Shown: in pieces, positions 4,995 to 44,815 of the stretch
How positions within the stretch are numbered: position 1 is the first letter of the stretch
Layout: every line of letters begins with the position of its first letter
DNA from: Macrostomum lignano
Lineage: Eukaryota
DNA: 64,000 nt
Direction: 5' to 3'
Assembly: GCA_002269645.1 (NCBI GenBank)
Contig: NIVC01001016.1
Span: 62,001 to 126,000, forward strand
Made by a program: the position numbers and the translations under genes
Notes under the pieces: generated by a model
What the model saw: only the letters and a program-made list of their open reading frames with translations
Database searches by the model: none
Told to the model about the DNA's origin: nothing

Positions 4995-7983
4995 ATGGGG
5001 CTTTGCAGGGGCAGAGCCAGGCAGGACAAAGGCTGCCTAACAGCAAGGACTGTGATTGTCACCTCCCTGATGCTCATATTCGTGACGGCGACTCTGCTGC
5101 AAGCTGTGTACGAAAGACGTTCGCTACTTCGGCGAATCAGTCCGAAAACTACGAAAGTATCTCCTACTATTAGGAATTCGTCAGGTTTGAGCGAAGCGGA
5201 CTTTATCGCCATTCTAAAGACGTGAGAAGTTTATGCATTTTATACCTAGAATTATCAATTGATTTAGACACAATGACCGAAATCAATAAAACCTGAATAA
5301 CAACTATTTAATAATTTTTGATAGCCTCGCTAAATATTTGGCAGATCAGAGGACATCACGGCACTGTTGGCTAAAAAGCATACGAAAACACTTTAGACAC
5401 TTTCTTGATTTCAAAAAAACCCGCGGGGGGGACGGAACTGCTAGTCCAATGACAATGAAATAAATCATCTCAGGTTTCACAAGCTATCAGATTAAAAGCA
5501 CAGATACTATATAACTAGTTATGTAGTTATATAACTCGTGATAAGTTAGTTATATTGTATCGGTAATTAAAAGTTAATAGCAACAGCAACCGTCAACTCA
5601 AATACCGATCGGATGATTGTGTGCGCCACTTAAATCTAAACACACGTGACACTCTGCAACAAAACAAACTACTGCAGCTTGCCAAAGGAGACGAACAGCT
5701 CAAGCAGGTGCACACCGCCGGACCTGCCGCTGTACAGCCGGTTCATCAGAGATCGAAGGCCCGCCGTCATCCCGGCCGACCTGTGCAGCAAGCGGGGCAG
5801 CCCCAACTGGCTGCGGGTGTCGCAGTCCAGAGTGCAGCTGCTCAGCCAGTTTGCAGCGGCCAACTGCTCAGCAGAGCCCGTGCTCAGACTCGACGATCAC
5901 ACCAGCAAGTTCGGCAGCGCTCAGCCAATCAGAAACGGCAGCGAGCTGCCCAGCCTGGGCTTCCGGGCGTCCTGCAGGTCGCCAGACGGCACGAAGCACA
6001 GCTCCGTGTACTACGGGACCAGGAGACTGCGGGACTCCCAGCTGCCCCCACTGAGGCCAGGCGACGCCAAGCGGGACAGTATCATCATTCTGGGACTTGA
6101 CTCGCTCTCCCGACTCGAGAGTCTGAGGTCTCTCGTCAATGCTAGCAGTCTGCTGAGAACACAGCTGGGAGCGCTCAGCCTCCTGCAGTACAACATCCTG
6201 GGAGACGGCACGCCGGCCGCTCTGGTGCCCATCCTCACCGGGACGAGGGAGTCCGACATGCCCGAAGCTCGCCGGGGCTTCAAGGGAGCTCGGCATCTGG
6301 ATGAGGTGATGCAGTTCATCTTCCACAAGCTGAAGGAGTTGGGCTACCTCACTCTGTATGGAGAGGAGGGCAGCAGCTTTGGTGAGGCTGTCTAACAAGT
6401 TTGCGATTGTGAGTACACTGTCGTTCTTGGATGTCGCAAGTCATCCCGGATCTCCCGTAATTCTCGACTTTCAGGGACCTTCCAGCTGAGATTCCTGGGC
6501 TTCAAGAACGAGCCCGCCGACTTCTACCTGAGACCGGTGCTGCAGAAACAGGAGGCCCTCCAGTCTCATCACATCTGCATCGGAAACGAGGTGGCGCCTG
6601 CCAGAATGCTCACCGCCATCAAGGACATGTTCTCGATGTACCCTGACCGACCGAAGTTCGCCTTCAGCTTCTTCAGCTCACTGTCTCACGAGAGCAAAGA
6701 CCTCACTCCGATGGACGCTGAGCTGACCGACTTCCTGAAGTGGTTCGTCAGCGAGAACCTCATCAGCAACACGACTCTCATCCTGATGTCGGACCACGGA
6801 CAGAGACTCGGACCGCTTAGGAACTCGATGCAGGGCAAGCTGGAGGAGTCGCTGCCGCTCATGACAGTCGCGCTGAGTCGGCAGCTCGAGGCTCGGCTTC
6901 CTCGAGCTCGGCAGACTCTGGCGACCAACCGGAACCGACTGACGATTCCCACGGACATTCACCGGACTCTGCTGAGCATCGCTGGATCCGATGCGACCGC
7001 TGCTGCTGCTGCGGACAAGTTCAGGTCGTACTCGTTGATCGATGAGGAAGTTCCCGAGACCAGAGGCTGCTCAGAGGCGGGCATCCCGGCTCACTGGTGC
7101 TCGTGTCTGAGCTCTGAGAAGATGCAACATCCGGAGAGTGAGCAGCTGCCCGTGAGAGCTGCTCAGTTCGCTGTGGCGCAGATGAACCTCGCCACGGCCG
7201 GCTTCCGGAACGCGTGCACCGAGCTGCGGCTCGATAGCATCAGCGAGGCGGACGTCAGTGTGGTGAGCTCATGATTCTCAACCCAATCGACGGAAAAATT
7301 TGAGTCCTCGAGCTTAAAGCTTAACTCTGCATTGCTTCAGTTCACCCTTAGCTGTAAAATAAGCGCCAGCATTTGCTGGGGTAAATTAGGGTGTGTTGTG
7401 ACTCCTCCAGTTCCTGGACTGAACAGCCGTACGCAGGTTATTTCAGATGCGCCGCGCATTAGCTGCGGCCGAGCTTTCGGTTGCACATCTGCAACTGTAA
7501 TCAAATATTGCTAGTACGTACAGAAAAGTCACAAATATTTGTGCTTTGAGCCTCCGTTATCGAATATATCATAAAGTTTATTTCTTAGAAAATGGTGTGC
7601 AGTGTCCTTGCATTTTTAGTTGCACATGTAGGTCCAGCTTTATTCTATCAATCCACACCCCATCACATGTACAGGCCAGCCTCGAGCTGTCCCAACGGGA
7701 GCGCCGCACGGACGCCGCATTCGCATACGAGGTTCGAATCCGCAGCCTGACCGCGGCCGGCTACGTCACCGTCCGGTTTGGCACGGTGCCAAACGCAGGT
7801 CTGTACGAAGCCACGCTGCGCTTCGCTTTGCGCAACGGCTCGGCAATTGCGACCGGCCGGGCGCTCGACTTCGAACTGATAGGAGAAATTTCCCGGACAA
7901 ACAGATACGGCAGCGCGGCCAACTGCATAGCGCATAGGATGCCGAGTCTGAGGAAATTCTGCTTCTGCAGGCTGGCCTCTTGA
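4995..7983 (+). CDS. DUF229-family protein (alkaline phosphatase/sulfatase-like fold), probable type II membrane protein, ~675 aa; exons 4995-5221, 5678-6381, 6475-7262, 7675-7983
   Basis: Motifs IIILGLDSLSR, YNILGDGTPAAL, GYLTLYGEE, LILMSDHGQR, EESLP, DIHRTL, CSEAGIPAHWCSC, YEATLR, SRTNRYG and CFC. N-terminal hydrophobic segment. All three introns are GT-AG and join in phase (2,1,0); total 2028 nt. Confidence 0.9.
7325..7470 (+). mobile_element. 5'-truncated copy of SINE family B (in DUF229 intron 3)
   Basis: Shares CTCTGCATTGCTTCA.GTT.ACCCT..GCTGTAAA, GTGACTCC and GGACTGAACAGCC blocks with 52575-52740. Confidence 0.55.
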
Positions 7984-8554
7984 TGAACTTGCTGTTGGGC
8001 CTGTACAGAACTTTTCTAGTCTGATCGCAAAAGCAGAATAAGCAGACAATCGCAGAAATGATTTTGCTTTTATGTTTGTTTTGAAATAAGTTTGATCTAA
8101 TAGGCATCGAGATTTCGCCAATCTGTATAAAGTATAAGCATTAAGCACTTGCAAATGTGCGTGTGCAGTGTGTTATCAAAACAGTATATTTAGTTTTTAA
8201 CTGATTCAACAGTTCGGCTTTTTGTGCGAACGAATTGTGTTGACAAGGAACTCCGATTCGGCAATAATCAATAATATTCACACGGAAAGTCTATGTATAT
8301 AACTAAAATTACACAGAAAAGTTGCAGCTTGACTTTTTATTGCAAAATATTTCCTGACTGGGGATGAAGACTTGGCGTATTTAGCAGTGAACAGTAGTGA
8401 GCAATGGTGAAAAATAGTCACTAGGGATGAATATAAGTTACTGGTTAGTGTAAACTTGAAATACAAAATACAAAATACAAAATACGTGAATGAGAATTGA
8501 TAGGGCGAACGGGGGTGACAAAAGTTCATAGATTGGAATGAGGGTGAATAAGAT

Positions 8555-8800
8555 TGACTAAGGGTAAATGAGGGTAAACAAGAGAAAATGAGGGTAAATG
8601 AGGGTGAATGAGGACCGTGAATGAAGGTAAATGAGGGTGAATGAGGACCGTGAATGAAGGTAAATGAGGGTGAATGAGGACCGTGAATGAAGGTGAATGA
8701 GGGTGAATGAGGACCGTGAATGAAGGTAAATGAGGGTGAATCGGGACCGTGAATGAAGGTAAATGAGGGTGAATCAGGACCGTGAATGAAGGTGAATGAA
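8555..8800. repeat. 33-bp minisatellite (GAGGGTGAATGAGGACCGTGAATGAAGGTAAAT)
   Basis: About 6 visible copies between the convergent DUF229 and HLCS 3' ends. Confidence 0.88.
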
Positions 8801-9463
8801 TGCGCATAGAAGTTTATCTAAGTGAAAGCTATTAGCAGTGCACTATGCATGCACTTAGCAGAGCAGCCAAATAGGAAATCAGCAAAGTATAAGACAGCTG
8901 TGCGTGAGCTCACATCTTAAGCCCTATAAATTTATCTCGGTTGTGAAGAGTCCTCGAAATCTCCTGAACAGCAATGCCAGGTATTCGAGTTTTAGACCTT
9001 ATCTAGATGAAAAGATCCCCTGTCTTAACGGCTGTCCACTCCGATCCATCCCAATTGGTTTAAAGAAAAAATGCAATTCCGACTACTGATAGTAGGAGCA
9101 AAACAAGAAAAATTTGTGCATGCAACAACAGACAGAAAAAAAACAGGTCTATGCGAAGAATAAAATGCGGAAAACAGTGCGAAACTTGGTAATAAATTTA
9201 TTAATATAAAACTGTCAGTCACTCAAAGCTCTAACCAGTGGACTCCAGCACTCTACCTTTGAAAATAGATTAAAACAACAGATAAAGTCTAAATTATGAA
9301 AAAAATCTGCTGTGCAAAATAGTAAAGAAAATTTTTTGCTTGTATACGAAAATTCAAACCACGCTTTTTGACGTCTACTTACTGTGAGTAGAAAAATACG
9401 CATTTTATTGTTTAAATTCGATTAAATGAATAAAAAATGACTCAGAAACTGTATAGAGGGCTG

Positions 9464-24466
<15,003 letters not shown>

Positions 24467-27796: not shown

Positions 27797-29152
27797 TTAA
27801 AAAAGCATAACAATAAAACTAGCTGCTACAATCAGAGAGCAGCCAAGAACAAAGAAGGTCATCATCAGAACAGTTTGATTTGACTGACTTTGTTCGCCAC
27901 CGAATTTAGACAACATGCAAGGCACGGCATGCAGAAAGATGGTGAATAGAAAAGCTCCCGCATTCAAGGACAAAACAGATGCCCTTATCAACAAAAGAAA
28001 GTCTGGCCACCGTTTGGATGGAGCGATTCCCGACATCGCCAGCCCAACCGCGAGGCCCAACGGTTCAGCCATGGATAAGGCTAATGCTCCGGAAACTACC
28101 GCTGTTTTTCCAGAACAGCAGGAACGCGATGCCTCCACGGTGACGGTGCAGTAAGTGGTCACAAGCAGCAGTCCAGCGCTTGCAGCGATGACCGCCTCGT
28201 GCATCGGCAGCAATAGCAAATGGCCGCCGAGCTTGGCGGGGGAAACTTCCCAACTGGAACCGAGGCGCCAGCCCGAGAGAGCGGCATGAACGCACAGGCT
28301 GAAGCAGAGGGCGTTGGTCAGGAAGTTGTGACGGTGGACAGCTGTGCGATTCCTTCGAATAGTTCTCTGTACAAGTTGACCTCGATTTCCATGGCCCTCT
28401 GGAACGGCTGAATTCGCTGGCGCCACGTCGGCACCTTGCTGCTGATTTAACTGGACCTCGTCAAGAAGCTCTTCCAAATCGGAATTGGAACTTCTACTGT
28501 CGCTGTTGTTGGTGCCGTACTGCCCGACTCCTTGAAAGCTGGCGGTTGGTGAGGTCGTCCCTGGCGGATGTACATCCTGCTGGCCGCTTTCTGCACAGTC
28601 ACCACCAGCATTGTCGGCTGAGACTGCAGCTTCCGCAGCTGCTGTCACAATCGGCCGCCGCTCCACCTCGGACCCATCAGCGACCCAGTCGTCGTCGCGG
28701 AGAAGGTGACTCCGACTGCTGGCGGAAATCCCCGAGCCGCTGGAGCCCAGGTTGAACGCGGCCAGAGCTTCGCTGCCAAGCTCCGGCTCCGGCTCCAGAG
28801 TACCGCCCCGCAGCGCCAGCTGGTCGAAGCTGAACAGCGCAAAGAATCCGCACAGCAGCAGGAAGCTCGAGACGGAGAAGTCGCCCAGCACCACCTGCAG
28901 ATGAGTTTTTCTCTGTCGCAGAGCTTCCTCAAATTCGGCACTGCCAGCCGCAAACAGTTCGAGCAGGCTGGCTGAGCAGAGAGCGCCAGCCGACATGCCG
29001 CAGGCGGCGACAAGCAGCGGACGTCGCAGCTGGAACTGCCGGTCGCTGAACCAGCGAATTGGTAGAAAGTAGGCAGCGAGAAGTTGAACAGCAGCGGATG
29101 CTGGAATGAGGAGCAGCTTCAGCCCCAGCTGCTGCCCGAAAAGCGTCATCAA
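27797..29152 (-). CDS. ZIP (SLC39) metal-transporter-like membrane protein, intronless, ~450 aa
   Basis: About 8 hydrophobic segments arranged 3+5 around a long cytoplasmic loop. TM1-2 GMSAGALCSASLLELF, TM4 LCVHAALSGWRLG, TM5 MHEAVIA, TM6 SMAEPLGLAVG, TM7 AGAFLFTIFLH. Confidence 0.75.
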   Translation of the reverse strand: MMTLFGQQLGLKLLLIPASAAVQLLAAYFLPIRWFSDRQFQLRRPLLVAACGMSAGALCSASLLELFAAGSAEFEEALRQRKTHLQVVLGDFSVSSFLLLCGFFALFSFDQLALRGGTLEPEPELGSEALAAFNLGSSGSGISASSRSHLLRDDDWVADGSEVERRPIVTAAAEAAVSADNAGGDCAESGQQDVHPPGTTSPTASFQGVGQYGTNNSDSRSSNSDLEELLDEVQLNQQQGADVAPANSAVPEGHGNRGQLVQRTIRRNRTAVHRHNFLTNALCFSLCVHAALSGWRLGSSWEVSPAKLGGHLLLLPMHEAVIAASAGLLLVTTYCTVTVEASRSCCSGKTAVVSGALALSMAEPLGLAVGLAMSGIAPSKRWPDFLLLIRASVLSLNAGAFLFTIFLHAVPCMLSKFGGEQSQSNQTVLMMTFFVLGCSLIVAASFIVMLF

Positions 29153-29604
29153 TCTACTGGGGCTGCGCAGATGGCCGAGTGCTCAAAATAGTCGATATTG
29201 TTCTGCTGTTGAAGCCATTTTCTGGTCTCAAATTTTTATAAGCCTTTGCAGCCGGATGAGGGAGACGATAATTACTAAAGCCGGATGTGACTGCATGCTG
29301 GAAAAATTTTAAGAGACCAATTATTTAAATGCTCCTCCCATTTGCATGTAGATAATGTTTGCAGTCATTTTGAAGGCTCTGCATGATGAAGCAGAGAAAT
29401 GGGACAGCATGGTCGCGATCCACAATAGTTATACTGCAGTGATGGTTATACGAATACATTGCCAATATATTGATACAGCACTTATTTCGGCGTTTGGTAC
29501 ACGTTTGCTCGTAAAGTGAAAGCTTGCGGGGCTCATAACCGAGAGTCCGTGGAGAGTCATTTTGCTAAGACTGTTTTAGGGTAGTGTCATTAGACTGCAA
29601 GTGA

Positions 29605-30054: not shown

Positions 30055-30279
30055 CGCACAGGCACACGCTCACACACACGAGTGCACAGCGGCCCTAACT
30101 GTATTTATCGTTAGGCATGTACACTTCACTGTGCCTTGGGGGTTGGCCCTCAATGGCGTTAATTGCACGAGCAGAGCCAAGCCAAGATTCCAATTCAGCC
30201 CCAAATTAATGTGACTGCACTTGGAATCGAGCCTGGGCCGCCGGCATATCAGAGCGCCTCTCGCTAAACCACTAGGCTA
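30055..30279 (-). mobile_element. tRNA-derived SINE, family A
   Basis: Head TAGCCTAGTGGTTTAG (A-box) and GGCTCGATTCC (B-box-like). Body is near-identical to the opposite-strand copy at 44567-44815. Confidence 0.75.
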
Positions 30280-31177: not shown

Positions 31178-33519
31178 TCATAGCCGCAGCAGCATCTCCA
31201 GCTGTTTGAAGCTGTAGAAAAATCCGTCAGAAATGTTTCTGGGAGCGTTGGACAGCCAGCTGACGCCGGTGGCTCTGTTGGGAATGTCCAGCGCAGCGGG
31301 ATAATTGTAGTACCGTCCGAATGGGCCAGCGCAATGGCAGCAGGTGTGCCAGTGTGGCAGAAAACTGGTGGCGCACCTGTTGTCGAAGGCGAGTCCACAT
31401 CGACTGGTTCCTCGATCTCTGGTCATTAATGGCGTGTTGGTTGGCGCCAAGCAGGAGGCTACAGCTGTGCTCTCGGAGTTCAGCGCCAAAACCTGGATAG
31501 TATACCTTGTTGACTCGTCAAGTATGCGAAAGTCTTTGTACCTGGCGTAGATGTAGACGTCGTTCCAATAGAGCAGGTCGATTCTCATCAGGCTATTAGT
31601 GAGGTTTCTAGTGGTACGATGCAGCCATTCCATGCCTGGGGTGCGGTCACCAGTGTATGGGTGTGATCAGTGTGGGTGTGGTCAGTGTGGGTGTGGTCAG
31701 TGTGGGTGTGGTCAGTGTGGGTGTGATCAGTGCAAGTTGATCAGTGCGAGTTGATCAGTGTGGGTGGGTGTGATCAGTGTGGGTGTGATCAGTGTGAGTG
31801 GGTGTGATCAGTGTGGGTGTGGTCAGTGTGGGTGTGAAGTGTGATCAGTGCAAGTTGATCAGTACGAGTTGATCAGTGTGGGTGGGTGTGATCAGTGTGG
31901 GTGTGATCAGTGTGGGTGTGACCAGTGCAGGTGTGATAAGTGTGAGTGTGATCAGTGTGAGTGTGATCAGTGTGGGTGTGATCAGTGTGGGTGTGACCAG
32001 TGCAGGTGTGATCAGTGTGAGTGTGATCAGTGTGGGTGTGATCAGAGTGATAGGTGTGATCAGAGTGATAGGTGTGATCAGTGTGGGTGTGTTCAGTGTG
32101 GGTGGGATTAGTGTGGGTGTGATCAGTGTGGGTGTGATCAGTGTGAGTGTGATCAGTGCTCACCAACAAAATAATCGGCATGGTAGGCCCCAAAACCGGT
32201 TTTGAAGTCGGCCCAGAGACGATTAAAGCTGATAGCGCTGGAGACTCTCAAGGTGACCGTTTCGTAGCACTGCCCGCCAGTTGTGCAGTAAAAGTCCTGA
32301 AGTAAAAGAAATTGAGAGCAATTTTTTAATGAGTAGTCATGCTGGCGCCCCTTGGTGCTGGCGCCCCTTGGTGCTGGCGCCCCTTGGTGCTGGCGCCCCG
32401 TGGTGCTGGCGCCCCTTAGTGCTGGTGCCCCTTGGTGCTGGCGCCACTTGGTGCTGGCGCCCTTTGGTGCTGGCGCCCATTGGTGCTGGCGCCCCTTGGT
32501 GCTGGTGCCCCTTGGTGCTGGCGCCCCTTGGTGTTGGCGCCCCTTGGTGTTGGCGCCCCTTGGTGCTGGTGCCCCTTGGTGCTGGCGCCACTTGGTGCTG
32601 GCGCCCTTTGGTGCTGGCGCCCATTGGTGCTGGCGCCCCTTGGTGCTGGTGCCCCTTGGTGCTGGCGCCCCTTGGTGTTGGCGCCCCTTGGTGCTGGCGC
32701 CCCTTGGTGCTGGCGCCCCTTGGTGTTGGCGCCCCTTGGTGTTGGCGCCCCTTGGTGCTGGCGCCCCTTGGTGTTGGCGCCCCTTGGTGCTGGCGCCCCT
32801 TGGTGCTGGCGCCCCTTGGTGTTGGCGCCCCTTGGTGCTGGCGCCCCTTGGTGCTGGAGTCCTTAAGATGCACAACTCAATAAAAATGATGGCTAAGCCC
32901 CCTGGTTTGCACCACCACGAATGACTCAATCAAATAACGTCATGATCTTATGGTGCTCAAAGAGCATCGAGTACCTGAGATTTCCAACTCGATCACAAAT
33001 CTACAAACTCACAAAAGTGTTCTCAGCCGAGAAATTAGCTGTCGGCCGTTGATATCATCGGCACAGCGGGGCGTCGGTGAGCAGGGAGCAGCCGGTTGAG
33101 TTGAGCACAACTTCGCTGCACCGCGGATGCCATGAGCAGAGGCACAGGCAGCCAGCCAGAGTTGGAGTGCCCGGCACCTCCAGCAGCCAGGCCTTGAAGA
33201 TCTTCGCCGAATTATCCGGAATGTACAGTCGCTTGTGAGTGACATTTTGAGTGGATAGAACGTCTGAAAAATTGATGTACTTGTGTTGTCATGCCGGAAC
33301 ACATAATTTAGAGACAACTTGGTTGAGATTCACGTCGAGCATATTATTACGAGTCGTATTAGTACGCGTATCACAGAAAGGTCACAGAACCATCAATCAA
33401 TCAACCAGCCCGTAAAGCGATCCAAAGTTTTTGACGTCCAACAACAACGTCGCTAGAAAACGGGTACCTGTTAAAATGCAGCAACACTTAGCTGAAATAT
33501 TACGCCAAGTTAAGCGCAT
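31178..33519 (-). CDS. Secreted PAN/apple-like + fibrinogen-related domain (FReD) gene; exons 33519-33468, 33263-33013, 32296-32164, 31635-31178; in-frame TGA at 33057-33055 (possible pseudogene or nonsense allele)
   Basis: FReD motifs SFNRLWADFKTGFG, DYFVG|MEWLHR.T, MRIDL..W, YARYKDFRI.DESTRY, TRDR, W...CHC and W..K..EM.LR. Exon 2 has PAN-like Cys spacing. Introns are GT-AG in phases 1,0,1. Exon 1 is the least certain. Confidence 0.72.
31645..32160. repeat. 15-bp intronic minisatellite (GATCAGTGTGGGTGT)
   Basis: Visible array in the last FReD intron. Confidence 0.92.
32340..32855. repeat. 16-bp intronic minisatellite (GGCGCCCCTTGGTGCT)
   Basis: Visible array in FReD intron 2. Confidence 0.94.
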
Positions 33520-34539
33520 CAGTGGGGCGTCCGATTGTTGATCTCTTTAAGAGCTTCAGTTCATAAACGAATGACGTCATTTCACGGGTTTCAGAACTAG
33601 AGGCCTGTCAAATGTATGCATTATCCAGGTTGGAGCTCGCAGTTCCGATTGTACTAAATCAGGAATCATAAAACTCGATCTGTCCCTCTCCCCAGTGAAA
33701 AAAATGATATGGATTCCATGTGGATTTTTCATATGAAATCCATATGTGCATTTGTCTCCGTCCATCCATGTGGAATCAAGATATGGATTCCACATGGAAG
33801 ATCCATATGGAAGTAATTATGTATTTCACATAGAATCCACATTGTCATTGAGTAAGCAGCCATTATACTGGTTGCCATAATAAATTGTTGCATCCTAAAT
33901 CTCAAAATAATACCAGATCTCAAAATTTCATACAAACCCCAGATCTCAATACCATATAAAAGAAACTGAAACACAGATAAAACAATAGCTATAGCCAAAA
34001 ATATTTCTGCACAAAAATTCAAAATTCAATATTCAAAAACGATGTAAGGTGTATTTATGTACAGTAGTGAGTCACTGGCACACAAAGAATAAACACACTG
34101 ATGTAAATATTGATATCTTTAGAGTTGCACTGTGCATATGATATAATATATAATTTGAAATTGACATTGTCAATAGCATTAATTAATTAACAATATTATA
34201 ATGCATCAGAATTAGAACAGTCAGAAACATGCTGCTGCCAATTGCCAGAATGCTGCTTCTTCAGGTCAGGTGAGCAACCTTAGAAAAGAAAGGGGTTAAA
34301 TTACAGAATTTTATAACAGATTGATGACAGATTTTGTAATAGATTTTGATGACAGAAAAAAATCAGTTTATAACTAAAACTTACCATTGCTTCACAAAAG
34401 GTAGCATTCGAGATATTAAATTCAAATTCCAAGTAGCTTTGCAAGCTTCTTCAAATGCAAGACCAAGGTGACATCCAAGTTTGAGGATGGGCCATGTAAT
34501 GTTAGGCTGAAATGAAATAGAAAAATAATTGTTGCCAAT

Positions 34540-35460
34540 ACTACTAAGCAACGGCAGATGGCGCGATTTTGGAGGTGAGGTGGGTGTCAACCCTCCTCGC
34601 CTCTCATTGGCTGGCGCCCCGATCACTAGGTGATCGATACCCGTATCGATATCGGCGCTCGGCGCGCGCGCGCCGCAGGCGCGTGGCGCCAAGCGCCGTC
34701 CAGCCGCAGGCGACCCTCCCCAGCCACCGGCGACCCTCCCCAGCCGCACCTACCGATATGTATGCCCACCCTACCGATATGTACCCCGATATGTACACCC
34801 TCCCGAGCCGCAGGCGCACCCTCCCGAGCCGTAGGCGCCCATGCCGCAGACGCCCATGCCGCAGACGCCCATGCCGCAGGCACCCCGAGTGTACACTCTA
34901 CCGAGCCGCAGGCACCCCGAGTGTACACTCTACCGAGCCGCAGGCACCCCGAGTGTACACTCTACCGATATGTACACTCTACCACTCTCCCGATATGTAG
35001 TCAACGATATTAGGCTAGTGAAAACTACTTATAGTAGGTGAAATTGAGTATATTTACATAAAAATGTAGATAAAACATATTGGTAGGTGAATAATGACGC
35101 ATATTGCATATTAAAATGTACATATTGGAGCATATGAGCAGCAAAAACACACAATGTAGGTGTATGGGCAGAAATAGACAAAGCAGGTACTGTAGGCGCT
35201 ACATAGGTGGAAATACACACAGCAGGTTTACAAAGTGTACTTTCGATACATATCGGATTAATGTATAAAGCAGGTTTACAAGGCATGCATAAGGTGTAGT
35301 TGTATAATACAGGCACGCATGTATAATCAGATTATAGGCAAACGCCCAGGTGCAACAGACGCGTAAATAATGTCGCACCGACTAAAGAGTAAATATTGTC
35401 TAACCCGCAGGTGCATAAAAATTTTAAACAAAAGCGGTTCGGGGAAATCCCAAAAGGGGG
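34540..35460 (+). repeat. Left terminal inverted repeat (~920 bp)
   Basis: Reverse complement of 43090-44028. The two differ in internal VNTR copy number and a few substitutions near the inner edge. Confidence 0.93.
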
Positions 35461-35817
35461 GTTCACGGCCTAATGACCCGATATACTTTCAACACAATTA
35501 AACCCACAAGTGGGCTAGAAAAATGGACGTATTTCGATTGCGCTATCAGTACGCTAATCAGCGCAGCAAGTTCATGTCAGGAGTTCTACTCCAAGAGGCG
35601 GACCGCTGGGCCACAAACCGCCCCGAGGGAATAGGTGTCAAATGGGAGTTTTAACACTTGAGGGGATCCCGCTCAATGTACAGTGGAGGCGCCAAATGAG
35701 TAAGGACCCCTAAGTACAGTGCGGGCGTAAAACCATTTTCATCCCCACGAGTCAAGGGATCCCAAGTGGGCACATAGGGGAATCCCAGGCGTGCAAAGAC
35801 AGATCCTTATCTTTCAC

Positions 35818-38800
35818 TCACTCCCGAAAGCCATACGGGCGGCTAGCGGCCCCATACACTCTCTTAGTCATTACGCGCTGGAAAGTCTTGTCCATCTCGA
35901 GGGTCCTTATTGTACAGCTGGCCTTATCGCGCCTGAACTGGGCCTGGGGCAGGCGGACAGAGCCCCCGTGGCGCAGAATTTCCTGCAGCTCGTCCTCGCG
36001 CTCGGAAATCTCGGGGGTGACTCTGATGCCCTTGCACTTGAGCACCGAGTACAGCGACCTGTCGGGCTTCTCCACCACGTACCGGTAGAGCTTGGGGCCT
36101 CCCGTGGTGAACTGTACCATGCGGCAGCCAGCAGGTACCTCGTCAGTCCACTGCCCCAAACTCGAACCGCCCGGAGGCTCGTACTCGCCCGGTGAGCAGC
36201 GGTATACAACCCTGGGAGGAGGAGGAGAATAAAGTGTTAAGGGGAGAAAGAGAGACAGAGACAGTTGAAAAAATTACTCACGAATCAGTATCGGCGTAAA
36301 TGACTCGGGTTCCTAGGCCCTCCAGAGCCTCGTAGAGTCGCAGCCGGGCGTGGGAGGTGGTGAAAACGCCAATAGGCACATTAGCGTACTTGAACGCCCG
36401 CTCGCCAGCACCGCCAAATCGGGGCTTGTACTCGAGCATCATGAAGCTCTCCCCAATTGGCTCGCACGACTTGACCTTGATCGAGGGGTCGGTCAGGCGC
36501 TGCAGCCACGCCTCGTAGCTGTCCACAATCTCTGTGGAGGTCAGGTCGTCGCGCTGGCAGAACTTGCCCCAGAGCCTGCAGGGGAAAAATAAATTTTTGT
36601 ATATCTGGCTACTGTAAGTAGAAAAACATGGTCCCCACTGCAAGTAGAAAAACTTACGAGTTTAGAAAAATCTTGGCAACAAAGCGCAAGCCAGGATTCT
36701 CCTCCACCTTTTCCAGCCGGACGCCTTCGCGCTCAAAAAAGCTGGCCATGTAGGCAGCCTTGGCGTCCTCAGCCATCCCCGGCGAACCGCTAGACTCTGC
36801 TTTGAGCTTCAAAAAAGTGTTTACATAATCTGCAAACAGGCCCGTGCGAGTCTCGGTCCAATAGGCCAGGGCATGAACTGACTGCAGCTTGTAACCCAAC
36901 TGCAGGGCCTTGTGGAGCTCTGGGGTCGACCACGTGCCGCGGAGCATTCTCTCAGCGTCAGTGTGTGTACACTCGCTGCTGCACTGGGTCTCCATGCAGA
37001 CGCGGCAGAGGCCGAAAACCAGCTTCTTGTTAATCTTGGCGGGCAGTAGCGGGGTGTGGAGATTGGTTGGCGGTAGAATCGACACCTCGGCGATGCCAAA
37101 ATACCGGGCCAGCTGCAGCTCATCCAGTAGATGAGGCTCGGGGTGGTGTACCGGGTGCCCGACAGGGTACTTGTCAAACTTGTTGACAGTCGGGTAGAGC
37201 GACACCTAGGGGATAAGGATAAGATAAACTCAAACGCATGTCAACTGTGTGTGTACAAGTGTACAAACTTACCACATCCCGATAGCGCAGCTCTACAGTC
37301 TCGGTGGCCTCGGCGTGCGGGACAAAAGCCTCGGTACGGCCGCCAAACAGGGCATCCTCCAGGCGAATAGGCTGCTGGACTGGCGCTCCCTCGTCCTGAT
37401 AGTCGTGCTCCCACAGAACACGCACATTGTATGCAGTGGAGAGCAACCGGGTGAAGCGCTCAGTCTCCTCATAAATCGCCCGCATTGGCTGGTTCTTGAG
37501 CGGGTGCAGCACGTCGCCGTTGGGGAAGCACTTGGGACAGCCATGGAAGAAGCAGCCATGAAACTGCAGCACTGTCCTGGTCTCTGGGTCGAAGCCGTCG
37601 ACCTTACGACCCATGGCGAAAGCCTCACCGCCCGAGTCCGCTGTCCGCAACCGGCCGCCAAACTCGGTTGCATTCAAATGTGCCAGCCAGCACCGCGCCT
37701 TGTGCGACTGTACATCGGACCGGCGGGAAATCACCCCAAGAGTGTTGGGCTCCATAAACTTGGTGGTGAATACCGACATGGCCAAGCCCGCAATGGTGTT
37801 GGATTGAACAAATGCGTCCAGTCCGCAAATGTCCTTAATCAGGCGGGCATATTTCAGGCAGCCTTCCCGCAAAATTAACGTGTCCTGCAGGCAATAGTCC
37901 AGGTACTCCTTATTAAAATTAAACACCTGTCCCTCCTGCTTGGCCAGCCAGTCTGCGATGGAGTCATGCTGCTTATTCTTCTTTCCTCCATACATATCAA
38001 TTGAGCAGTAGGGACCGACGTACCCCCAATTTTGAGGCTGGTTAAACACGTGCGGGAAATCTCCTTTGGTCAGTTGGGTGCCCAAACCAAGCGCCTTTGG
38101 GAATTGCGCCAGACCAATAGGGATGAAATTGAGGCTGTCCTTGAAGGTGATCTTGTCGCACTTCATGTACATTAGGCGGCTGTTCTGGAAGATCACCTGC
38201 GGCTTCTTCTTGGCCAGTCCGTTGAGTAGGGCGCCGAGCAGGAGGAATGCGTCATACGCAGAGCCATTGTGCGCAATAGCAATTGCCCCCTGCTTGAACA
38301 CACTAGTCAGCCAGCAGTAAAATGCATCGATAGAGTGCGGCCCGACAGATACAAACTCTCGCATCCCACAGGCACAGTCATTGTGCGAGACACAGCTCGT
38401 GAAATCCAGTGCCAAATCGCGTCCCGCAATGCAATTGGCTGAGCTGTGTAGTCCCCCGCACACGCTGCAGCGGGGCCTGGGGAAGAGTTTGGGACACGCC
38501 TCGCAGGAGGTGGCAGCCGTAACCAAGTGTACCCGGTGCTGCTTGCCAGAGTCCACGTACGTCTCGAAATCATAGTAAACATACGGGGCGCTAGACTCTT
38601 TGGCTTTGGGCGGGGTGACAAAGCACTCGTGGGTGGCAGTTTCGTCGTACTGCTTGCAGACTGGGCACTTGGCATAACCACACTGATGCTCAGGGGGCTG
38701 GCCTACTTTTAGTTCTTCTAGATAGCCACACGTGCCGCAAACGTGGACCGAATCACAGCGCGATCTGCCGCCTTATTCTTGCGCTTGTGATTTTCTAGGC

Positions 38801-40870
38801 ACTGAGCATTATAGCAATTTAGCCCGCAATCCTGGCATCTTACATATGCGCGGTTTGCCTTACAGTTGGAGCCCGGAGTCTTGCATGTACTGCAGGCGTC
38901 AGCGCACTTGTGCTCGGCGTTGGCGCAGTCGTAGGCCATCTCGCACTTGGCGCAGTAGTGATCAGAGCCGAAAAACGCAGGCAGCTTGGTGACCACATTA
39001 AAGTGCTGCTCGACCAGGTGCAGGTGCAGAATCTCGGTGCCAGGCAGGTTGAAGATGCACCTGTTGGCCTCCTCTGCCCTGTACACTCGTACACCAAAAT
39101 CGCGCCCCGGATGCAGCCGGTTCAGGGCACGGATCGCTTCGGGCAGTGCATCCACCCCGAAAGGACCAGCCTGCGAGACGGTTTGAAGAGTCTGTGTGGA
39201 GGGTAAAATATTTCTTTTAGTATTCCCTGATACTGTGTAAAAAATCTTATCAGAAAATATATCTTTTAGTATTCCACGATACTGTGTAAAAATTCTTATC
39301 AGAAAATATATCTTTTAGTATTCCACGACTGTGTAAAAATTCTTATCAGAAAAATACTAGAAACTTACCGTGTAGAGGCCAGCTTCGATTTGTAGCTCAG
39401 CCACCAGCTTAGTCTGCGTGGGCGAATTGGCCTTGATTGTGTGCCACACCCGCTTGGTGATGGACTTGGCCACGAATTGCAGGTAGGCGCAGGCCACGAC
39501 CAGAGCGCGCAGCAGGCATCTCTTGTCCGAGTTGGTGATGCGGACATAGTGCTTGGAGAAGGCGTGCCGCTCTTCTAGATGCTTGTTCTCGAGAGCACAT
39601 CCACCTCGAGGTACCCAGGCTTTAGCAGACGGATAGAAAAGTTGCTCGACAGTACGCTGCGTCTGACTGCACAATCTTGTCAATGTGCTTAAACAACAAT
39701 TCAGCCGTCATGCGGGCTGCACGCACCGGGGGAGTGTGGGCCGCTTTGAGCATATTGTCGCTCTCGAATTTCGCGGCCATAAAGTCATCACCAGCCAAAT
39801 CTTGCTTGAAAACTTCGAGCATGTCAGCAAACACCTCCCGCAAATCTTCGGTGTTGGTAATATGCACCACATACTCGACACCCTTTGCCCTAAACTTGGG
39901 CAGGTCACGCTGATTATCCAGCCGGCCGTAAAACCTGCATGGGGGAATGGGGGAGTGTGAGTCAGCTAGGGTCTGTGTGGGAAATGGGGGGCTGGATAAC
40001 TCACCCGGTCCGGTAACAGATTCCGGCTGTGTTGGCGGGACAAACGCGTCTGAAAAAACACAAGGAGATAAAAAACCAGAAGAATCTGTCATTTTCCTGG
40101 CCCCAGCGTGTTTCCCCGCCCTAGCCCCAGCAATTTCTTAACAGAGTTTACTCTGCTGTCCCCGCAGCAACTCTCTGCAATTTCTTATCTGCACCCCCGC
40201 TGCAGCCTGTCGCAGCAGTCTTTGTTTACTCACCCCTGCAACTCTCTGTCGCAGCAATTTGCACCTAGCTGCAGCCTGTCTGGGTAGCGCCCCTGCCAAT
40301 TTCTTATCAGTCTGTCCCCGCGCTACACAGTCCCAGCAACTCTCTGCCCCACCTGGCTGTAACTTGTCTAGCCTGCCCCAACGATTCTGCAGCAATTTCT
40401 TATCTGCCGCAGCACCCTAGCAACTGTCTGTTTTTGCAGCAATTTCTTATCAGCACACCCCTCCCTGTCTAGACAACCCCCCCACCCCAGTCTTTGTTTA
40501 CTCACCCCTGCAACTCTCTGTCGCAGCAATTTGCACCCCAGCTGCAGCCTGTCTGGACAACACCCCCCTAGCAGCAATTTCTTATCAGCACACACCCGGC
40601 TGAAACTTGTCTAGCCCTCCCCTGCAACTCTCTGTTACAGACCCTGCCGCAGCACCCCACCCTAGCAACTCCAGTCTAGACCCCTGCAGCTGTCGCAGCA
40701 GTCTTTGTTGTTTACTCTGCGGTCCCACAGACCCTGCAGCTGCTGCTGCTGCTCAGCCCCTACCCCCACCCTAGCAACTACAGTCTAGACAGAAATTAAT
40801 TAAAACTTACCATAAAGACGTTGCCTCTTGTCAGCCAGAAAGCAGTTGCTGCGGCGCTGCGTTTAGCCAT
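35818..40870 (-). CDS. polB: Protein-primed family-B DNA polymerase (Polinton/adintovirus type), spliced; well-supported exons 39934-39369, 39191-37273, 37205-36658, 36575-36282, 36211-35818; putative first exon 40870-40811 and a small exon 40049-40005; apparent frameshifts near 39655 and 38760
   Basis: ExoI YYDFET, ExoII AHNGSAYD, FKDSLNFIPIGLAQFPKA, KGDFPH, ExoIII YCLQD, TIAG, FGGRTE, motif A DV|VSLYP, motif B KIFLNS|LWGKF, motif C YADTDS|VVY, GPKLY, KCKGI and KRVY...S.PYGF. Introns are GT-AG and restore the motifs in frame. Confidence 0.93.
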
Positions 40871-40940
40871 TTTGCAAACAGAGAGCGTGAGAGAGCGGAG
40901 AGAGAAGGATTTATCTCTCTACCCTGGCTCTGGGGGTCTG

Positions 40941-41062
40941 TATATATACTAAAAAATCTGCTCAGCTCGCCTGTTATTGGATAAATCGCCAAAAACCAAC
41001 CAAAATCATCAAAAATCACCCCAAAATCATCACCCACCCCACCCTCCACCGGGGGTATATAA
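40941..41062. promoter_or_regulatory. Divergent promoter with two TATA boxes (TATATATA 40941-40948 for polB; TATATAA 41056-41062 for the PC4-like gene)
   Basis: TATA motifs lie about 70 nt upstream of the minus-strand ATG (40870) and about 50 nt upstream of the plus-strand ATG (41112). Confidence 0.6.
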
Positions 41063-41111
41063 GGCGCTGCACGGCTGTCAGAGAGCTCTCTGCTGCTGCT
41101 GCTGCTAAATC

Positions 41112-41645
41112 ATGTCTTCTATCTCTCTATACGAAAACTTTGTGGCGCGGAAGCCCACATTTGAAACTGAACACAACTTGATTGAAATTCGGCGTCTCTA
41201 CACCAACGAGGCCGGAGTGTGGAAGGACGGCTTCCCTGCAATCTACTTGGCCGAGCCAGAGTGGAAGAAGCTCGAAGCTGCGCGCCCTGACCTGGAGGCT
41301 GCTGCCCGCCTTCACGTGAACAAGCGGGTCCTGTTGGGCAATTTCAAGGCAGTTGAAGCTTCGCGAGGGAGGATCCGTTTGCTGCGCAATTGGCTCAATC
41401 AGGACCCAAAGTTTAATTGGCGCTACACGATCGAATTCACGCCTGAACTGTGGCGCCGGATGTTTGCCGCCCGTTTGGACAAGCTCTTCAAGCCGGCACC
41501 TGAGGCACCCCCTCCAGCCAAGCGAGTCAAGACAGACACGCCTCCGGTAGCCGGGACTGAGGTGGATGTTCTTCAGCTCATGGGTCTCAAACCCTACCAA
41601 TCTCCACCCTGGGAAAATCTGTTTAACGAGGGTTGGGACTGCTAG
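41112..41645 (+). CDS. Tandem PC4-like (putative ssDNA-binding) protein with C-terminal NLS, 177 aa
   Basis: LIEIRRLYTNEAGVWKDGFPAIYLAEPEWKKL resembles the PC4 core ([32 protein letters not shown]). A second degenerate copy is IRLLRNWLNQDPKFNWRYTIEFTPELWRRM. PPAKRVKTD resembles the c-Myc-type NLS. Family call is by eye. Confidence 0.68.
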   Translation: MSSISLYENFVARKPTFETEHNLIEIRRLYTNEAGVWKDGFPAIYLAEPEWKKLEAARPDLEAAARLHVNKRVLLGNFKAVEASRGRIRLLRNWLNQDPKFNWRYTIEFTPELWRRMFAARLDKLFKPAPEAPPPAKRVKTDTPPVAGTEVDVLQLMGLKPYQSPPWENLFNEGWDC

Positions 41646-41760
41646 TTTCCTATTGGTTCGCACCGCCTCACTCGATCCGTCTATATAATTAGTGTTTCCC
41701 CCTCTCCAGAGAGTCAAACCCTATCTCAGCTCTAATACTTTACTCTCTGTTGATTCTAGC

Positions 41761-42774
41761 ATGTCCCGCGAGCTCTATCCAACCTCTGGGATAATAATCG
41801 CCCGACTGAAGAGTTAACCAGCCTCGACGGGGATATCCCTGAACACATAGTTCCCCTAGGCACTGAAAACAACGGAAGTGATAATTGGGAGGCTGATCAA
41901 TATCTAGCTTGGGCTATGTCCTATGATAGCGACACCGAGTCTGAAGTTTTTGACCTCCCGCTGCTGGCTATCGGCGGGGTTGTGAACGGTGCCCCTGCTG
42001 CTACTGCCTCCGATTTGACTACCGCCTCAGCCGCCCTCTTTGACGTCTCTGTTGAGGAGCTGACCACAACCGGCCCTGCCTCTGCTGCGCCCGTCTCTGC
42101 TGCTGCCGCCTCTACTACGCCCGTCTCTGCTGCTGCTTCAACTACCTCCCACCGGGCCTCAATATCATCAGCCGCTACGCTCCTTCTCTTCGACGACGAG
42201 GACGAGGATATGTCTGAGGAGATCGCCGTGGTTCGTGAGCGCTTTCCTCGCATTGTGGCCTCATTTTTCCGCGGGGACATTGACTGGCTGAGGTCTCGGC
42301 ATCCTGGCGGGCTGCCCTCCCAAGCTACCTTTGTCAGAGCCTTTAATCGGGTTCTTGATACTTTGGTTGCGAGGGGTGCCGGCCTACGGGAGGTGTTGGA
42401 GGCTGAGACTCTGCACCAGGACTGGTTGATGGGGCGCAATTCGTATGCCCCCGACTCTGAGGCGTACCTGGCCGGTCCGGGAGCGCGGCCAACTGCGTGG
42501 GATGAGCCCGTCGCATGGCCCTCCAACTGGGAGGAGCACCTTTCGTTGGTGCGCTATACAGCGTCTCTACGTCTGTGGCGGCTGGAGGACGATTTAGATT
42601 TGGTAAGATATTACATTATATACACAACTTATCTAATCATATACCTTGCATATATTCTATCTACATTGACTGTTATAATTTCCACATTGCCAGTCATCCG
42701 ACTACTGCTTCGAGAGCGTGGAGGAAGAGGCCGCGTACGAGACAGCCCTGAGGGAGCGTATGGAGATTGACTGA
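41761..42774 (+). CDS. Unknown acidic protein of the Polinton-like element; exons 41761(or 41916)-42602 and 42694-42774; probable 1-nt frameshift near 41780
   Basis: The 41916 frame stays open upstream to about 41780. ATG 41761 follows a TATA-like TATATAA near 41681. Intron 42603-42693 is GT-AG, phase 0, and gives the C-terminus SSDYCFESVEEEAAYETALRERMEID*. Confidence 0.6.
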
Positions 42775-43089
42775 TAAGGGTATTTCTCTTTGTACGCGGT
42801 TTGGGGAACCCAACACTGTACACTGGGTAGGTTAGAATGTGCGCTAGCTGGGGGCCTCTATGTGTGTATACACGGGGGTTAAAAGACCAATTCTGATAGC
42901 TCGCTCCTAGGGAGGAAATTGGCAGAGGGGCCGGCCCAAAAAACTGAAATGGGCTGGCCCCGGGCTCGAGTCCACCCACCTAAAATATGGAGGTCATTAC
43001 AACCTAATGACCCGAAATACTTTCAACGCAATTGTACCTATAAGAGGGTTAGGGCGGCGGCGGCGGTGGCGAAAACGGGCGGCTAAAAC

Positions 43090-44028
43090 CTCCCTTTTGG
43101 GATTTCCCCGAACCGCTTTTGGTTAAAATTTATGCACCTGCGGGTTAGACAATATTTACTCTTTAGTCGGTGCGACATTATTTACGCGTCTGTTGCACCT
43201 GGGCGTTTGCCTATAATCTGATTATACATGCGTGCCTGTATTATACAACTACACCTTATGCATGCCTTGTAAACCTGCTTTATACATTAATCCGATATGT
43301 ATCGAAAGTACACTTTGTAAACCTGCTGTGTGTATTTCCACCTATGTAGCGCCTACAGTACCTGCTTTGTCTATTTCTGCCCATACACCTACATTGTGTG
43401 TTTTTGCTGCTCATATGCTCCAATATGTACATTTTAATATGCAATATGCGTCATTATTCACCTACCAATATGTTTTATCTACATTTTTATGTAAATATAC
43501 TCAATTTCACCTACTATAAGTAGTTTTCACTAGCCTAATATCGTTGACTACATATCGGGAGAGTGGTAGAGTGTACATATCGGTAGAGTGTACACTCGGG
43601 GTGCCTGCGGCTCGGTAGAGTGTACACTCGGGGTGCCTGCGGCTCGGTAGAGTGTACACTCGGGTGCCTGCGGCATGGGCGTCTGCGGCATGGGCGTCTG
43701 CGGCATGGGCGTCTGCGGCATGGGCGCCTACGGCTCGGGAGGGTGCGCCTGCGGCTCGGGAGGGTGTACATATCGGGGTACATATCGGTAGGGTGGGCAT
43801 ACATATCGGTAGGTGCGCCTGCGGCTGGGGAGGGTCGCCGGTGGCTGGGGAGGGTCGCCTGCGGCTGGACGGCGCTTGGCGCCACGCGCCTGCGGCGCGC
43901 GCGCGCCGAGCGCCGATATCGATACGGGTATCGATCACCTAGTGATCGGGGCGCCAGCCAATGAGAGGCGAGGAGGGTTGACACCCACCTCACCTCCAAA
44001 ATCGCGCCATCTGCCGTTGCTTAGTAGT
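43090..44028 (-). repeat. Right terminal inverted repeat (~940 bp)
   Basis: Reverse complement of 34540-35460. Confidence 0.93.
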
Positions 44029-44566
44029 GCCAATTAAGATTAATAAATAATATTGATATAATTCATAAAACTAATTTAATGATAAATACTTATAAAATAA
44101 AATAAAGTTTATTTTTAAATTAACTAGGCCTAAGTCCTAGGTTTATTTTTTAAGCGCAAAATGTGCATATGCACCCTAAATTTTAAAATTGCACCTTGAA
44201 AATTGAAATTAAAAAGTTGATGATACAGTTTAGGTGTGATCTCATTACCTATTTTTCTGTTGAAGCCTATTTTGCACTGCCTTTATATAAGAAAAAAGAG
44301 AAACTGCATTCTAAGCCTTAAAATCATAAAACCCTAAAAGTGAGCATAGGGTATGATTTTGCACCTTGTCTCTAGCAAAAAAGAAAACCCTACCTAAGTC
44401 AATCAATAAAATAAAATTAATAAAATTAAAATAATAAGTACAAAGAATTAATATATGTTTCTATAAATTTAATTTTTTATTTTAAAATTGATTTTAGACT
44501 ATAAAGTATTTAGGCAAAGCAATGCATGTTTTTTTTATATTTGCTGGCCTATTATGATTAAAAGGG

Positions 44567-44815
44567 GGGCTGTAGCCAAGCGGTAACACAGCTGCTCTGG
44601 TGTGCCAACGACCTAGGCTCGATTCCAAGTGCAGTCACATTAATTTGGGGCTGAATTGGAATCTTGGCTTGGCTCTCTGCTTGTGCAATTAACGGCCTTG
44701 AGAGCCAACCCCCAAGGCACAGTGAAGTATACATGCCTAACAATAAATAAAGTTAGGGCCACTGTACACTCCTATGTAAGTGTGCCTGCATACGTATCCG
44801 CACGCTTGTGTGCCT
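44567..44815 (+). mobile_element. tRNA-derived SINE, family A (second copy, inside the CMC-like element)
   Basis: GGGCTGTAGCCAAGCGG head, GGCTCGATTCC box, and a body matching 30055-30279 on the opposite strand. Confidence 0.75.

Follow-up and report, generated by a model that had tools for sequence, protein, structure and literature searches.

The three catalytic motifs (A, B, and C) of the DNA polymerase of a Polinton-derived element in Macrostomum lignano are each interrupted by an intron that is real and spliced, and intron placement in this gene is non-random. The polymerase gene (35818..40870, minus strand; PF03175, E 7.6e-18 and 1.1e-12 for two exons) lies in the window, i.e., the whole stretch of 64,000 nt that we analyzed, to which coordinates refer unless a locus is named. 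It is under purifying selection, and some Polinton polymerases in metagenomes carry introns with a similar bias toward conserved sites.

Splicing of the polymerase introns

The gene contains six introns, three of them in catalytic motifs. The motif A intron (37272-37206, minus strand) is 67 nt long, lies in phase 0, reads GTAAGT..TAG and splits YRDV|VSLYP; the motif B intron (36657-36576, minus strand; 82 nt, GTAAGT..CAG) and the motif C intron (36281-36212, minus strand; 70 nt, GTGAGT..CAG) are both phase 2 introns that interrupt a Ser codon, in KIFLNS|LWGKF and YADTDS|VVY, respectively. None of these lengths is a multiple of 3, so that each intron breaks the frame, and their GC content is 0.37-0.43, compared with 0.56 in the 2-kb bin 36001-38000. 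Upstream are intron 3, in the N-terminal region (39368-39192, minus strand; 177 nt, phase 0), whose position is the same in the second family of the element (family B, see below), intron 2 (40004-39935, minus strand; 70 nt), and intron 1 (40810-40050, minus strand; 761 nt, with no ORF >14 aa). The motif names given here to the intron sites (exonuclease, nuclease-like, A, B, and C) are those that we take to be the correct ones.

An earlier reading of the window from its sequence alone (the sequence-only reading) had placed the three motif introns at these coordinates and phases with GT-AG ends, and had proposed to check them by junction reads. The sequence agrees, and in 3/3 runs that we presume to be RNA, by guess and not from the record (X1, X16, and X19, from three studies), assembled contigs, which give no splicing levels, skip 70, 82, and 67 nt, with ends CT..AC on the plus strand. 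None of the three joints was found in X10, the one DNA run compared, and a single 2,936-nt contig of X1 crosses all three motif introns in spliced form; intron-free DNA in the other samples is formally conceivable. The intron proposed at 39368-39192 is likewise supported, X16 alone showing a net skip of 177 nt. Introns 1 and 2 were absent from the earlier reading; the joint of the former is present in X16 and X19, and a net 69-nt skip matches the latter in X1, X16, and X19.

GT-AG ends, a consensus donor, a pyrimidine-rich acceptor, and exact removal from presumed RNA are features of U2-type introns, and the six are most likely ordinary major-spliceosome introns of old date. Across the 5-kb gene span, GTRAGT occurs eight times on the coding strand: six occurrences are the six donors and two lie within intron 1. 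This count, together with the spliced joints and the conservation of splice ends in other copies, rules out an artefact or chance GT-AG ends, while group I or group II introns and inteins are dismissed on the lack of an Rfam match and on the frame-breaking lengths of 67, 82, and 70 nt. As the sequence-only reading had anticipated, ORF calls fragment the polymerase, and ORF-based searches miss such genes. Its claim that the polymerase needs host splicing also holds, except that placement in motifs does not add to this dependence, for which the upstream frame-breaking introns suffice. It overlooked that the polymerase frame of the window copy is broken upstream at ~39650, ~39620, and ~38770; the run contigs disagree with the window at two of these three breaks. 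In both families of the element, the nuclease-like motif (~37565-37545, minus strand) has Gln where most relatives have Glu.

The element, its copies, and other virus-like families

The element spans 34540..44028 (9,489 bp; ends ACTACT...AGTAGT) and is bounded by a left (34540..35463, ~920 bp) and a right (43087..44028) terminal inverted repeat, which pair and are near-identical, with a 6-bp target-site duplication on either side (left copy 34534..34539, right copy 44029-44034). All four copies with both ends visible (the window copy, L102, L096, and a family B copy, where it sits in a G run) display a 6-bp duplication. Between the repeats, the gene set consists of the polymerase, a PC4-like protein gene divergent from it (41112..41645, plus strand), and one gene without assigned function (41760..42770, plus strand), for which Atlas leads are weak. 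The PC4-like protein has an Atlas lead of 0.85-0.86 to PC4-bearing clusters and no PC4 match in Pfam, and its family B counterpart scores above the PF02229 cut-off; judging from these similarities, it is probably a single-stranded DNA binder. In the gap between the polymerase and PC4-like genes (40930-41070), two TATA-like sequences read by eye face apart, in family B too, and may form a bidirectional promoter. The third gene has a probable 91-nt intron (42603-42693; GT..AG, GC 0.27, phase 0), as the earlier reading proposed; its ends are canonical, no joint is found there among those listed, and one X1 contig crosses it unspliced.

The assignment of the element to the Polintons in that reading is upheld by the polymerase, the repeats, and the duplication, and not by the remaining gene content. 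Ten element ORFs and three extra family B ORFs gave no match to an rve integrase, a split or diverged gene being still conceivable, and a Pfam scan of the element ORFs between the terminal repeats yielded no capsid, packaging ATPase, or protease. A scan of viral contigs returned no relative, Rfam no match within the element at E 0.5, and a sequence search of solved structures no match. The element is most likely a self-replicating, integrase-less Polinton derivative, which would replicate by its own polymerase and integrate via an integrase supplied in trans.

Such an integrase could come from elsewhere in the genome, where we found 73 capsid matches (PF21738) and at least two further virus-like families with capsid genes (loci within L104-L133). 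One family carries a capsid, an rve integrase, an ATPase, a D5-type primase-helicase, and an Eco47II-like nuclease and is a candidate integrase donor; the other has a capsid, an ATPase, and a polymerase that bears an endonuclease VII and whose motifs are not interrupted. No ends of the capsid-bearing families were found in the stretches examined. The genome search for a packaging ATPase came back blank, a false negative given that one ORF from the genome passes the cut-off. L127 and L128 hold a different polymerase with all three motifs in one ORF, a within-genome control indicating that the host does not load all such genes with introns. We rejected a bipartite element, with a capsid segment sharing its ends, because comparison with 30 capsid loci gave no DNA match to the element; long inverted repeats are paired on many contigs, and the scored pairs are all ~8 kb apart (40 of 169 candidates scored, contents checked for part of them).

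Around the element, the window contains host genes at 5640-12252, 27800-29182, and 31181-31666 (a DUF229 protein, a biotin-protein ligase, a ZIP zinc transporter, and a fibrinogen C domain), and a ~7-kb array of 12-18-nt units with several open frames and strong GC skew (13639-21108). An inverted pair of ~180 bp, 89-93% identical (30074-30255 and 44594-44777), lies outside the element and is probably another dispersed repeat.

Of 36 candidates scored in the 764-Mb genome, at least 26 cover the whole 4.2-kb query, at 88-100%; copies of the element are 88-99% alike. Family B has 68% protein identity to family A, that of the window, and a similar layout plus a dUTPase, measuring ~10.4 kb in one delimited copy. 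Positions and phases of the A, B, and C introns are the same in both families, which answers a further check proposed by the earlier reading; dS between the families is saturated and the intron sequences are no longer alike. dN/dS is 0.04-0.06 within family A (five copies) and 0.09-0.10 to family B (three copies). The intronless siblings that would have identified the introns as chance insertions were sought in part of the genome (candidates scored: 36/143, 39/545, 35/4,430, and 44/278) and were found at 0/52, 0/49, and 0/45 sites of the three motif introns (56 loci, 49 contigs). GT..AG ends are kept in 50/52, 47/49, and 45/45 places, with intron lengths of 65-144 nt. These introns are old and were retained while a working gene amplified.

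The family B motif A intron is 81 nt long, in frame, and stop-free (e.g., in L084, L086, L095, and L099), so that naive ORF calls read through it. In a third lineage, P0127 (66%), an ORF has its two ends precisely at the A and B sites; P0130, sister of the Macrostomum clade (support 100/98), has all three motifs in one ORF, seen as protein and possibly derived from a transcript. In one family B copy, the dUTPase gene lies at L086:9307-9834, and part of polymerase exon 3 is present as a duplicate at ~7640-7890. Non-LTR retrotransposon ORFs (RT, RNase H) lie just upstream of the family B polymerase at L084:1-3783 and L098:1045-2943. In L029, L030, L088, and L089, polymerase sequence is inverted or rearranged within a single locus, representing either fold-back copies or assembly artefacts.

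Placement and recurrence of introns in Polinton polymerases

The comparison with random placement that the sequence-only reading had called for gave p 3e-5 to 4e-4 for one intron per motif, with six introns placed at random in ~3.8 kb of coding sequence and motif widths of 7-20 codons. A motif-blind version, using a conservation profile from 74 full-length homologues, gave p 6e-5 to 3e-4 for 3/6 introns in stretches this conserved.

We found introns in 10 of 80 metagenome polymerase loci (of 163 confirmed loci, the 80 most like one query, not a random sample), amounting to 22 introns at ten sites. The introns kept have a consensus-like donor, an acceptor, AT-rich sequence, and no read-through; these are 22 of 48 candidate inserts, the other 26 having been dropped (20 that can be translated across with neither a stop nor a frame change, 6 ambiguous or in decayed copies). 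P0131/P0271, P0127, P0241/P0289, and the P0154 cluster (protein only) were left out of the statistics. The ten sites fall in the second exonuclease motif, at two glycines of the nuclease-like motif, twice in motif A, twice in motif B, at the Leu-Gly after motif C, and at two less conserved positions. One of the two motif B sites is identical to that of Macrostomum, so that with Macrostomum included motif A is hit at three positions and motif B at two. All 22 of these introns follow an exon G, whereas the Macrostomum B and C introns follow C.

Mean conservation at the 12 distinct sites in the catalytic region is 0.68 compared with 0.43 (p 2.5e-6); p is 0.0016 when the sites are collapsed to eight regions, 2e-4 with five ambiguous sites added, and 0.01 with all eleven dropped sites added. 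Conserved stretches covering 22% of positions hold 10/12 sites, and residue-matched nulls for the ten sites outside Macrostomum gave p 1e-4 to 1e-3. Outside the strongly conserved stretches lie 3/6 Macrostomum introns and 2/10 of the other sites.

A single clade of all intron-bearing rows is rejected (AU p 4.7e-7; 35 rows, one search); in the large tree, from which 26 near-duplicate rows were removed, deep nodes are weak. Site B+8 is used in two non-sister lineages; for B+5, DNA shows two, to which the ORF ends of P0241/P0289 add. L143 has an intron in the nuclease-like motif and its close sister L140 has none, and the same holds for L138/L141 and their sisters L142/L149/L151; such clean differences suggest exact gain or loss. 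Several intron-bearing loci adjoin an uninterrupted packaging ATPase, and L138 also a protease-like gene, indicating that complete Polintons are affected too. At the protein level, database ORFs bounded at these sites, including a 443-member cluster, point to more lineages; P0286 appears to read through an intron, and P0131/P0271, with a foreign N terminus before motif A and a 19-residue insert in motif B, have apparent introns. Variable regions of relatives contain in-frame insertions of 12-42 residues, mostly without canonical donors. Few introns can have been overlooked, as tblastn cover of the intron-bearing loci is almost complete.

The longest ATG-initiated ORF among 32 introns is 48 aa, and strong alignment among 465 intron pairs is confined to same-site introns from close relatives. 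None of the 80 loci has a long insert at a motif, and a pattern scan of 150 matches, ~30 rows of which were unparsed, found no intein-like insert between motif halves. The idea of converted inteins came from the position of all three Macrostomum introns at or one codon before a Ser, near which inteins presumably insert; it was discarded, no intein-bearing relative having been seen.

Explanations for the motif bias and comparison with known systems

The explanation that we consider best, at close to but short of an even chance, is that introns persist and are copied preferentially at motifs without any function of their own. Introns would arise at splice-friendly sites, where the exon ends in G. 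Those in variable loops could vanish by imprecise deletion or be read through as a small insertion, while in catalytic motifs exact removal alone would be tolerated. Copying of an intron by recombination between diverged elements of the same nucleus would need conserved flanks, which the motifs alone may offer. Recurrent sorting of this kind in Polinton polymerase genes would let introns accumulate at motifs. The in-frame insertions in variable regions are as expected from read-through of old introns, although their general lack of canonical donors counts against this. Exact loss via cDNA should ignore position, according to the available text of PMC2814812; the clean differences between close sisters suggest exact gain or loss; and the introns and sites outside strongly conserved stretches, like the rise of p to 0.01 with all dropped inserts counted, weaken the case. 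An old intron-rich ancestor followed by many losses could also scatter introns over a tree with weak deep nodes.

It is unlikely that the introns are relics of homing spliceosomal introns of the shintron type, or that a trans-acting nuclease, for example the nuclease-like domain inside the polymerase itself, spread them by cutting intron-free motif DNA. The site preference is that of inteins as well as group I introns, not of ordinary spliceosomal introns (PMC2814812, in part), archaeal PolB inteins likewise cluster in the catalytic domain (from the accessible portion of PMC4760082), mirusviruses have endonuclease-carrying spliceosomal introns (PMC12768974, excerpt), and inserted homing-endonuclease domains are described in Polinton polymerases in the sections available of PMC11161782. 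The shared use of B+8 and B+5 by non-sister lineages also fits, and to this extent the suggestion of the earlier reading that the positions are relics of motif-targeting mobile introns survives. However, none of 32 introns has an ORF >48 aa, the element has no Rfam match, same-site introns are dissimilar except in near relatives, and the searches for long or intein-like inserts, within the scope given above, were negative. The bolder version, in which introns of Polinton polymerases are homing parasites whose nuclease, possibly polymerase-fused, cuts the motif DNA of rivals, the introns being driven in or protective, seems to us doubtful and somewhat less probable; if true, it would give ordinary nuclear introns an intein-like life cycle and imply a hidden diversity of Polintons (capsid-less, integrase-less replicons) missed by ORF-based searches. 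Selection for introns that break conserved DNA or pre-mRNA targets of rival nucleases or host small RNAs is improbable. Rivals do reside in the same genome (the capsid-bearing families and their 73 PF21738 matches), and several bases per motif are used, as if any interruption protected; yet the motifs of the co-resident polymerase are clearly different, and spliced mRNA keeps the target.

Quite improbable, in turn, is that no motif-specific process operates and that protosplice bias (Gly and Ser codons), ease of detection, and one intron-rich ancestor account for the pattern. The exon G before 22/22 outside introns, the dropping of 26/48 inserts, and the non-independence of sites within one motif speak for this, but residue-matched and flank-only nulls reject chance, tblastn cover is near complete, the Macrostomum B and C introns follow C, and conserved stretches with 22% of positions hold 10/12 sites. 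Very improbable is a regulated switch, proposed by the sequence-only reading, in which the element would stop replicating in those tissues or states that retain the introns. X19 covers the motif B intron as well as its spliced joint, and 15/52 places have a motif A intron that keeps the frame and lacks stops, such that retention would yield a full-length protein with a broken motif. Nevertheless, the upstream frame-breaking introns already impose full dependence on splicing, donors are of strong consensus, one X1 contig has all three introns removed, pre-mRNA or DNA may account for the unspliced cover, and the in-frame copies are related rather than independent; the introns can be explained without a switch, which has little support.

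These data strain two published generalizations, namely that Polinton core genes are intronless and that spliceosomal introns take no account of how conserved the protein is. A multicopy gene that is small and evolves fast, with gains at the same motifs in several lineages, provides a tractable test of intron gain, retention, and movement. Introns exactly at motifs defeat motif- and ORF-based searches, and such elements are thus undercounted. The Macrostomum element itself is a stripped replicon of a polymerase, a PC4-like protein, and one gene without assigned function that keeps 6-bp duplications without an integrase of its own. In a literature search to which Repbase, subscription papers, and supplements did not belong, we found no report of this element or of introns in Polinton polymerases, and the available portions of PMC8502044, PMC12220804, and 10.1101/2023.08.22.554363 contain nothing on spliceosomal introns in pPolB.

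The element resembles Polintons/Mavericks (Alpha adintovirus-type, pPolB1) in its protein-primed PolB (PF03175), long terminal inverted repeats, 6-bp duplication, and multicopy presence in an animal genome, and the proteins closest to it outside Macrostomum are polymerases of Polintons (27-36% over the large exon, up to ~52% over the A-B exon). By definition, Polintons encode a polymerase and an integrase (PMC5499653, in the part available). The Macrostomum element differs in its size of 9.5 kb, in that no integrase, capsid, ATPase, or protease was found in it, and in the six spliceosomal introns of its polymerase; core genes of intact vertebrate and nematode Polintons are described as intronless in the accessible text of PMC8097293 and 10.1101/2022.07.12.499685, as the earlier reading had assumed.

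Among intron systems, mirusvirus shintrons (PMC12768974, as excerpted) likewise have canonical GT-AG ends and interrupt core genes of an element akin to a nuclear DNA virus, but those occur in morphogenesis genes of protist viruses, whereas ours lie in the polymerase of an animal element, measure 64-198 nt (one 761 nt), and contain no endonuclease ORF. Inteins and group I introns likewise favor the most conserved motifs, among them the PolB catalytic domain (PMC2814812 and PMC4760082, both in part), a preference not found for spliceosomal introns (PMC2814812, same part); unlike them, the introns here are spliceosomal, frame-breaking, and short, without an ORF or a known RNA family. Active homing elements or introners were excluded, given the lack of ORFs and of an Rfam match and the sharing of sequence among close relatives only. 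Introners do place spliceosomal introns inside dinoflagellate Polinton-like elements (PMC11957031, available section), as young repeated families, whereas the introns described here are mutually dissimilar, old, and biased toward motifs.
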